In this document: in pieces, positions 32,851 through 32,937 of the stretch
Numbering within the stretch: the first letter of the stretch is position 1
Layout of the letters: each line of letters begins with the position of its first letter
Virus genome (UHGV): UHGV-0081829
Length of the DNA stretch: 40,614 bases
Origin: a virus
Strand: one strand, 5' to 3'
Position numbers and translations under genes: made by a program
The notes under the pieces: generated by a model
Seen by the model: only the letters and a program-made list of their open reading frames with translations
Database searches by the model: none
Told to the model about the DNA's origin: nothing

Positions 32851-32937
32851 ATATCCTGAATAATTTTTTACCACAGGATATGTAGGTATCTATTGACTAT
32901 CAATGCGTACCTACATACTATGTATGCGTACCGCATA
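32851..32937. promoter_or_regulatory. Divergent mnt/arc control region with nested palindromic operator candidates
   Basis: ATATCCTG-15 nt-CAGGATAT (32851-32881); TGTAGGTA-19 nt-TACCTACA (32881-32915) enclosing ATTGA-cta-TCAAT; TATGCG-tac-CGCATA (about 32921-32937). Confidence 0.5.

Follow-up and report, generated by a model that had tools for sequence, protein, structure and literature searches.

In bacteriophage P22, the immI region (NC_002371) occupies a late-operon site between the ejection-protein and tailspike genes, and combines two repressors of the Arc/Mnt family of ribbon-helix-helix (RHH) proteins, the P22-type antirepressor, an antisense RNA, and a divergent intergenic region of approximately 100 bp. 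Regions of this kind, the "ant morons," have been described by Villafane et al. 2008, where phage CUS-3 is said to lack arc (PMC2629481); a search of the literature returned no experimental work on the type of operator that is the subject of this report, and descriptions of "ant morons" at the level of genes only. Here we analyse the corresponding region of UHGV-0081829, a viral genome of 40,614 nucleotides (the whole of which is referred to below as the window), in which an earlier note had proposed that nested palindromes at 32851-32937 act as operators. The locus belongs to a P22-like (Lederbergvirus) prophage of E. coli, in which it forms the divergent promoter region of a module of the P22 immI type, with the order mnt-like gene, Pmnt/Pant, arc-like gene, sar-like RNA and ant. 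It shares with P22 the gene order and orientation, the late-operon site, two RHH repressors, a P22-type antirepressor and a divergent intergenic region of similar length, together with a candidate sar-like antisense RNA, and differs from it in its control sequences: where P22 has two unlike operators, this region carries three copies of one box with a 21-bp period, and where the P22 promoters overlap fully, with the Pmnt -35 element downstream of the Pant -10, the two predicted promoters here have only the -35 region in common.

The nearest phages are Salmonella phage SEN22 and E. coli phage CUS-3 (Lederbergvirus), with 81-83% DNA identity over the 5' end of mnt, the intergenic region and arc. 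They carry the same boxes, promoters and proteins, and the palindromes are more perfect in the window, where position 32914 is C and position 32933 is G. A further mnt gene, of the P22 type, is present in CUS-3, as is an additional small open reading frame (ORF) that separates arc from ant.

Three copies of one box in the control region

The elements of the control region to which the following sections refer are:

32847-32951, both strands: intergenic control region
32883-32892: box L, TAGGTATCTA, in the Pmnt spacer
32904-32913: box M, TGCGTACCTA, in the Pant spacer, 21 bp from L
32925-32934: box R, TGCGTACCGC, on the predicted Pant start, 21 bp from M
32922-32938: site R, a 17-bp palindrome, GTATGCG-TAC-CGCATAC, around box R
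32893-32898, plus strand: predicted Pant -35, TTGACT (promoter scan; 17-bp spacer)
32916-32921, plus strand: predicted Pant -10, TACTAT (promoter scan; TACTAT, TAATAT or CACTAT in relatives)
32903 to 32898, minus strand: predicted Pmnt -35, TTGATA (promoter scan; 17-bp spacer)
32880 to 32875, minus strand: predicted Pmnt -10, TATCCT (promoter scan; within the right arm of repeat 1)

The central feature of this region is a set of three putative operator boxes, copies of one 10-bp pseudo-palindromic sequence with a GTAC core that recurs with an exact 21-bp period. This period corresponds to two helical turns, so that all three boxes would lie on one face of the DNA. The box consensus is T-R-S-GTAYC-K-M, and each site spans approximately 17-18 bp when its flanks are included; M and R have the 9-mer ATGCGTACC in common, and longer common stretches are found in relatives.

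Relatives of the locus were gathered by three routes: through the Mnt-like protein, through a DNA pattern consisting of the -35 element and box M, and through the Arc-like protein or its alignment. The DNA scan provided 73 unique intergenic variants, and a further collection, anchored by protein alone, comprised 38; distinct related loci number approximately 80 in all, and their sources were Escherichia, Salmonella, Photorhabdus, Pantoea and uncultured viral contigs. Throughout both sets the block 32883-32938 is conserved. Conservation does not extend leftward into the segment that contains the first inverted repeat.

Comparison of these loci also clarifies the nature of box L. In the E. coli/Salmonella lineage the best reading of it is M in inverted orientation, which accounts for the TGTAGGTA/TACCTACA arms of the second inverted repeat described below. 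The Pantoea and Photorhabdus lineages, and some with a short leader, have GTGCGTACCTA or ATGCGTACCTA as box L, which repeats M and R directly, and two relatives (L005 and L159) have the perfect palindrome TAGGTACCTA, which the box consensus itself approaches. Box L is fixed in position and not in orientation, an arrangement that would be tolerable to a two-fold symmetric dimer.

Exact copies of box sequences exist elsewhere in the prophage, namely an 11-mer that includes the R box (ATGCGTACCGC, 16145-16155) and the L box (TAGGTATCTA, 5500-5509). The box pattern has six matches in the whole window, three of which lie beyond the operator region (chance expectation 1.0); the copies away from the operator region are probably chance occurrences.

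Inverted repeats and their excess over chance

The three inverted repeats reported in the earlier note all stand at the positions that it gave. Repeat 1 consists of ATATCCTG (32851-32858) and CAGGATAT (32874-32881), separated by 15 nt, and its 8-bp arms were correctly measured. Repeat 2 had been read as two 8-bp arms (32881-32888 and 32908-32915) and in fact has perfect arms of 10 bp, TATGTAGGTA (32879-32888) and TACCTACATA (32908-32917), which enclose ATTGA-cta-TCAAT at 32892-32904. Repeat 3, TATGCG-tac-CGCATA at 32923-32937, likewise extends to perfect arms of 7 bp (GTATGCG/CGCATAC, 32922-32938). A fourth perfect repeat, TACATA-c-TATGTA (32912-32924), lies over the Pant -10 element and had been missed; it was dropped as a candidate binding site, its symmetry being confined to the lineage of the window among the relatives. 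Site R was also considered as an RNA hairpin in the arc mRNA, a possibility that was rejected given that its left arm lies upstream of the predicted Pant start.

The density of perfect symmetry in the region is higher than chance would give. Maximal perfect inverted repeats with arms of at least 6 and loops of at most 30 were counted and compared to 5000 dinucleotide-preserving shuffles: the 87 bp contain four repeats with 30 arm bases, as opposed to shuffle means of 1.07 repeats and 6.8 arm bases, the probability of a number at least as high being 0.02 and that of a sum at least as high 0.004. The same sum of arm bases is reached by 0.1% of the 4053 87-bp windows of the 40.6-kb sequence. The only stretch that outscores the region in inverted repeats, 15211-15300, falls within an ORF of 165 aa (15121-15618) and resembles coding sequence rather than a regulatory site.

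As to the function of the palindromes, two of the three coincide with the strongly conserved boxes and are the best operator candidates, and repeat 1 is not conserved. The notion of separate Mnt-type and Arc-type operators fares less well, since the outer arms of repeat 2 and repeat 3 are copies of one and the same box. In the comparison with P22 to which the earlier note pointed, neither P22 Omnt (AGGTCCACGGTGGACCT) nor P22 Oarc (21 bp, with two TAGA boxes 11 bp apart) has a resembling sequence in the window at up to three mismatches, and Omnt is absent from CUS-3 as well. The observation that prompted this work was, in sum, sound, and its interpretation partly right.

Predicted back-to-back promoters

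Overlapping divergent promoters had been expected here, and the region does contain two predicted sigma-70-type consensus matches with a common -35 region. The inner palindrome ATTGA-cta-TCAAT, which had been included among the operator candidates, is best described as two predicted -35 hexamers placed back to back and sharing one base (32893-32903). TTGACTA(T/G)CAA is kept in all protein-anchored relatives, and the symmetry of the inner palindrome in relatives stops at TTGA...TCAA; the variant TTGACTAGCAA breaks that symmetry and keeps both hexamers. On the Pmnt side, the -10 position reads TAnnnT in every relative (TATCCT, TACCAT, TATTCT, TAATCT, TACTCT, TAACAT or TAATAT), and the constancy of this motif, together with the variation of its inner bases, fits a working -10 element. 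Transcription is predicted to begin around 32868 on the minus strand for mnt and around 32928 on the plus strand for arc-ant. A Pmnt located upstream of the hairpin described below was also considered; visual inspection of the minus strand gave TTGGTA-15-TAGTAT as the best candidate, which was rejected.

Which repressor would recognise the boxes

The specificity of Arc and Mnt is set by their N-terminal residues (Knight and Sauer 1989, as cited in PMC3413123), and Arc reads its DNA, the TAGA boxes, through Gln9, Asn11 and Arg13 (PMC12645479). The Mnt-like protein of this module carries the same Gln/Asn/Arg combination, where P22 Mnt has His/Asn/Arg, and its strand is identical to that of a crystallised Arc variant, F10V. 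In 73 of 73 loci, GTAC boxes are accompanied by an Mnt-like strand of the form PQVNLR(L/I)P (PQVNLRLP in the window), despite the diversity of the proteins concerned: 58 distinct sequences of 73-131 aa (counted from 7 residues ahead of the strand), with identities in the RHH domain as low as 46%.

Other Mnt strands are paired with other palindromes at the equivalent place, six strand types with five palindrome types, not counting the GTAC type. They include:

P22: strand PHFNFRMP, palindrome AGGTCCACgGTGGACCT
L009: strand PKINIRVP, palindrome GTGGCACGGTGCC
L012 (Proteus type): strand TPYSLRMP, palindrome TGTGATATCACA, present twice
L015 and L061: strand RTQIRLP, palindrome GGCACT/AGTGCC
L007: strand IKAGLRLP, palindrome TGCCTCCA/TGGAGGCA

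Together, the invariance of the strand that accompanies GTAC boxes and the change of palindrome with the Mnt strand make the Mnt-like protein the most probable binder of the boxes, as far as can be judged from covariation.

The strand of the Arc-like protein falls into two classes, KVKT(L/I/M)R.P and.P(S/V)(S/T)VR(F/M)P, and no intergenic base among the relatives correlates with strand class; nor was a separate Arc-type operator identifiable. Searches intended to split the two proteins by co-occurrence, through the Arc-like protein, the Arc-like protein of the second class and the Arc-like alignment, did not achieve this, as they gave only loci with the same boxes and the same Mnt-like gene.

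The Proteus-type locus L012 and approximately 25 others (L034-L059) belong to a different immI specificity type. One copy of TGTGAT(A/G)TCACA lies in their Pmnt spacer and a second directly follows the Pant -10, and the two copies flank a palindrome with 10-bp arms, ATATAGTCAA-N7-TTGACTATAT, composed of back-to-back -35 hexamers. The general layout is the same, with another box.

The first inverted repeat as a possible fold-back RNA

Repeat 1 lies outside the conserved block, on the mnt side, and involves the following elements:

32851-32858, minus strand: left arm, mnt-sense CAGGATAT, which holds the mnt Shine-Dalgarno AGGA (32857 to 32854)
32874-32881, minus strand: right arm, mnt-sense ATATCCTG, which holds the predicted Pmnt -10
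32844-32883, minus strand: potential fold-back RNA hairpin joining the Pmnt -10 region to the mnt Shine-Dalgarno, available only to mnt-sense transcripts that begin upstream of the predicted Pmnt start

Its sequence is not conserved. Most short-leader relatives have a different inverted repeat at the same place, with arms CCATG/CATGG, TCTTA/TAAGA, CTTAATCT/AGATTAAG, CTACTC/GAGTAG, TCTATA/TATAGA or CTCTATA/TATAGAG, and since these arms vary under an invariant Mnt-like strand and the same Arc-like strands, repeat 1 is unlikely to be an operator for either protein. It behaves, instead, like an RNA hairpin that runs from the Pmnt -10 to the Shine-Dalgarno. Mnt-sense RNAs that extend from just upstream of the -10 element to the start codon were folded one sequence at a time, with shuffled controls: the window hairpin has a dG of -13.1 kcal/mol (z = -4.5 to -5.1), and z is below -2 in 13 of 20 representative leader variants. 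When each strand is compared to its complement, G.U pairs give the mnt-sense strand the greater stability in 24 of 32 variants (Wilcoxon 6e-5, uncorrected for relatedness). Finally, pairing of the Shine-Dalgarno reaches 80% or more in 14 of 20 read-through RNAs, as compared to 0 of 20 RNAs whose 5' end is the predicted Pmnt start. The most economical reading, one that depends on the predicted transcription start, is that repeat 1 would act as a fold-back RNA hairpin and not as a protein site.

Folds are possible in other leaders as well. In P22 (L003 1269-1307, minus strand), the segment from the Pmnt -10 to the mnt start can fold with -9.4 kcal/mol (z = -2.1), which pairs the -10 region with the region of the start codon, so that fold-back may not be specific to this family. 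In relatives with a longer mnt leader (for example L006, L031, L202 and L206), a short hairpin, GC-rich or perfect, lies within the predicted transcript and either directly precedes the mnt Shine-Dalgarno or overlaps it, as in CTAACC-att-GGTTAG of L206; changes in the arms of these hairpins look compensatory (CGCC/GGCG vs CACC/GGTG).

The module and its surroundings

The genes that surround the control region, and the features associated with them, are:

32604-32846, minus strand: mnt-like RHH repressor gene, 80 aa, MSERRYKNPQVNLRLP... (Pfam Arc PF03869, E = 2e-10)
32952-33098, plus strand: arc-like RHH gene, 48 aa, MKVKTLRMPEW... (Pfam Arc, E = 1.6e-5)
33098-33164, minus strand: sar-like antisense RNA (Rfam RF00262), between the arc stop and the ant start
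33165-34094, plus strand: ant antirepressor gene, 309 aa (P22_AR_N, E = 1.3e-45; P22_AR_C, E = 1.6e-29)
33199 to 33171, minus strand: sar-type promoter-like site TTGATA-17-TATACT, 10/12 with TG, inside the 5' end of ant and placed as in P22

Identification of the module as P22-immI-type relies on the Pfam matches, on synteny with P22, SEN22 and CUS-3, on the position of the sar-like RNA, and on a match to an E. coli chromosome. Both RHH ORFs score above the Pfam Arc (PF03869) cut-off and are divergent, in the order and orientation of P22, and an antirepressor gene follows downstream; Pfam and synteny thus agree with the earlier placement of the control region between divergent Mnt-like and Arc-like genes. 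The structures closest to the Mnt-like protein are those of P22 Mnt and Arc. For its gene, a start at 32846 (MSERRY, 80 aa) is more likely than that of the longest ORF at 32852 (MLMSERRY), judging by the N-terminus MSE/DR.YK kept in relatives and by an AGGA located 7 nt upstream of the ATG. The match to RF00262 is full length (1-68), with 28.7 bits, which is below the gathering score of 43, and E = 0.0018. An E. coli chromosome matches the segment with 100% identity, and 169 of 5426 complete E. coli genomes contain related copies.

The view that CUS-3 lacks arc does not hold, as positions 2764-2904 of its sequence (L002, CP000711) contain an unannotated arc-like ORF of 46 aa (MKVKTLRMPEKLEK...), inside a feature labelled "bsq2 boundary sequence." Between this ORF and ant, CUS-3 has a small Cys-rich ORF at 2901-3105 (MSKECCFCG...CSDC...).

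Around the module, the neighbouring ORFs at 32113-32580 (minus strand, 155 aa) and 34128-34904 (plus strand, 258 aa) match no Pfam family. Elsewhere in the window, a lambda cIII thermoregulator element is strongly matched at 2456-2514 (minus strand, 88.5 bits) and two tRNA genes are found at 14633-14785 (plus strand).

A proposed mechanism and its alternatives

The best explanation for these data, which we favour by a modest measure, is that the region would work as an immI switch made up of back-to-back promoters, an array of three repressor boxes, and an RNA hairpin on the left-hand side. Pant would fire rightward into arc-sar-ant and Pmnt leftward into mnt, from a common -35 region, and dimers of an RHH repressor, most probably the Mnt-like protein, would sit on the boxes. 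Occupation of M and R would keep Pant, and hence ant, off in the lysogen, and would at the same time free the common -35 region for the weaker Pmnt, amounting to positive autoregulation by promoter competition. Occupation of L would limit Pmnt and provide negative autoregulation of mnt. The coiled-coil-like C-terminal tail of the Mnt-like protein could hold a tetramer that bridges boxes 21 bp apart. The Arc-like protein, made from Pant after infection, would shut Pant off, probably via the same array or else through an unrecognised site. Lastly, an mnt-sense RNA started upstream, for example by read-through from the sar promoter, may fold and hide the ribosome-binding site, and an RNA begun at Pmnt, having no 5' arm, would be translatable. 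Positive autoregulation by promoter competition was reportedly described in P22 by Vershon and co-workers (Vershon et al. 1987). The anatomy of the region, its conservation and the covariation of strand with box are shown by the data; the assignment of proteins to boxes, the transcription starts, the oligomeric state and a role for the hairpin belong to the proposal.

A number of points weigh against this explanation. The consensus was built from the three copies themselves, which makes the enrichment of boxes circular, and Tandem Repeats Finder calls no repeat on 32800-33000, the 21-bp units being too diverged. Pant and Pmnt are consensus matches only, with 9/12 each. The 73-locus set was picked with a pattern that contains box M, and strand invariance is conditional there. 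Every Arc-anchored locus also has the boxes and an Mnt-like gene; the module being inherited whole, co-occurrence is unable to separate the Mnt-like from the Arc-like protein as the binder, and the reading positions Thr/Ser and Arg of the Arc-like protein are conserved in both of its classes. With respect to the hairpin, the Shine-Dalgarno is not occluded in 6 of 20 variants, no consensus structure emerges from RNAalifold for an alignment of 20 leader variants, as the pairing register shifts between lineages, and the sar-like promoter is the only upstream mnt-sense promoter known.

Among the alternatives, the most serious, unlikely as it is, is the view of the earlier note less its left-hand palindrome, and follows P22 closely in having two operators, with R as the Mnt-type operator and the large palindrome 32879-32917 (box L, both -35 hexamers and box M) as an Arc-type operator, from which the Arc-like protein would repress both promoters as Arc does in P22. 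R does equal P22 Omnt in size and position, since both are 17-bp sites just downstream of the Pant -10 (1329-1345 of L003 in the case of Omnt), and M is placed like Oarc, between the Pant -35 and -10; moreover, L reads as an inverted M in the E. coli/Salmonella lineage, where 14 of 16 bases match in L019, and a site centred on both -35 hexamers would be expected to repress both promoters. The 9-mer common to M and R suggests, however, a single specificity, the large palindrome is lost in the many lineages in which L is a direct repeat while the boxes are kept, and its arms are 27 bp apart from centre to centre, as opposed to 11 bp between Arc half-sites. In the opposite direction, one could envisage a single operator type in the strict sense, in which a tetrameric Mnt-like protein and the 48-aa Arc-like protein would use the same boxes and differ only in cooperativity or reach, with mnt insulated from sar-promoter read-through by a -10 hairpin that was re-invented many times; this bolder version of the switch is one that we put forward with considerable reserve, and rather doubt. 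We find it improbable that the boxes are autoregulatory sites of the Arc-like protein alone, with the Mnt-like protein acting elsewhere or otherwise. The Arc-like gene is found together with the boxes in every case, its Thr/Ser and Arg positions are conserved, and Arc must act at Pant; yet the maintenance repressor must act at Pant as well, and there is no other conserved site for it. The only invariant eight-residue reading strand of the module, furthermore, is that of the Mnt-like protein, and across the wider Mnt family it is with the Mnt strand that the palindrome at this position changes.

Two further possibilities concern the repeats themselves. That repeat 1 is a DNA operator through which either repressor or a host protein controls Pmnt appears quite improbable: its 8-bp arms are perfect, it overlaps the Pmnt -10, and most relatives have some inverted repeat at this place, but the arms are wholly different under identical reading strands, the spacers range from approximately 8 to 17 nt, and the G.U pairs that favour the mnt-sense RNA would be needless in a DNA site. 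Least credence of all is due to the idea that promoter elements and chance produced the symmetry, and that it does not serve as an operator. The two -35 hexamers do fully explain the inner palindrome, and an AT-rich intergenic composition favours short repeats; the density of the region, in the top 0.1%, speaks against it, as does the conservation of the boxes beyond the hexamers in Escherichia, Salmonella, Photorhabdus and Pantoea. The switch with one array of boxes and a left-hand hairpin is, then, the explanation that we retain in what follows.

Parallels with other regulatory systems

Arrays of RHH sites, such as the met boxes of MetJ and those of the ParG/omega type, consist of short, in-phase pseudo-palindromic boxes, each of which suits one RHH dimer. 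In those arrays the boxes are contiguous and 7-8 bp apart, whereas here they are 21 bp apart, exist in three copies only, and are interleaved with promoter hexamers. The tetramer boxes of ParG are mentioned in PMC3413123 and PMC3130281.

The left-hand hairpin, in turn, evokes IS10/Tn10, in which fold-back inhibition is said to protect translation of the transposase from read-through transcripts (work attributed to Davis, Simons and Kleckner 1985). There, too, the ribosome-binding site has its complement just ahead of the point at which the gene's own transcript begins, and only transcripts from outside fold. The likeness is one of design only, and the gene concerned here is a repressor and not a transposase.

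Significance for P22-like phages

The P22 paradigm is not overturned by these observations: by its gene content, gene order and logic the module is of the P22 immI kind, and it differs in its operator sequence, in the geometry of the promoters and in having one repeated type of box where P22 has two unlike operators. The immediate gain is a set of concrete candidate operator boxes and promoter assignments, together with a correction of the view that CUS-3-type modules lack arc. For the classic work on Arc/Mnt specificity, the module offers a partner in the form of an Mnt-type protein that carries the reading residues of Arc and would face a different DNA site. This specificity type is common, with related copies in the 169 E. 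coli genomes noted above, in SEN22 of Salmonella and in CUS-3, a K1-capsule phage, and its operators were previously undescribed. Since it is the immI module that determines if a P22-like phage, superinfecting or resident, can inactivate the main repressor, the specificity of immI sets a second layer of phage immunity.

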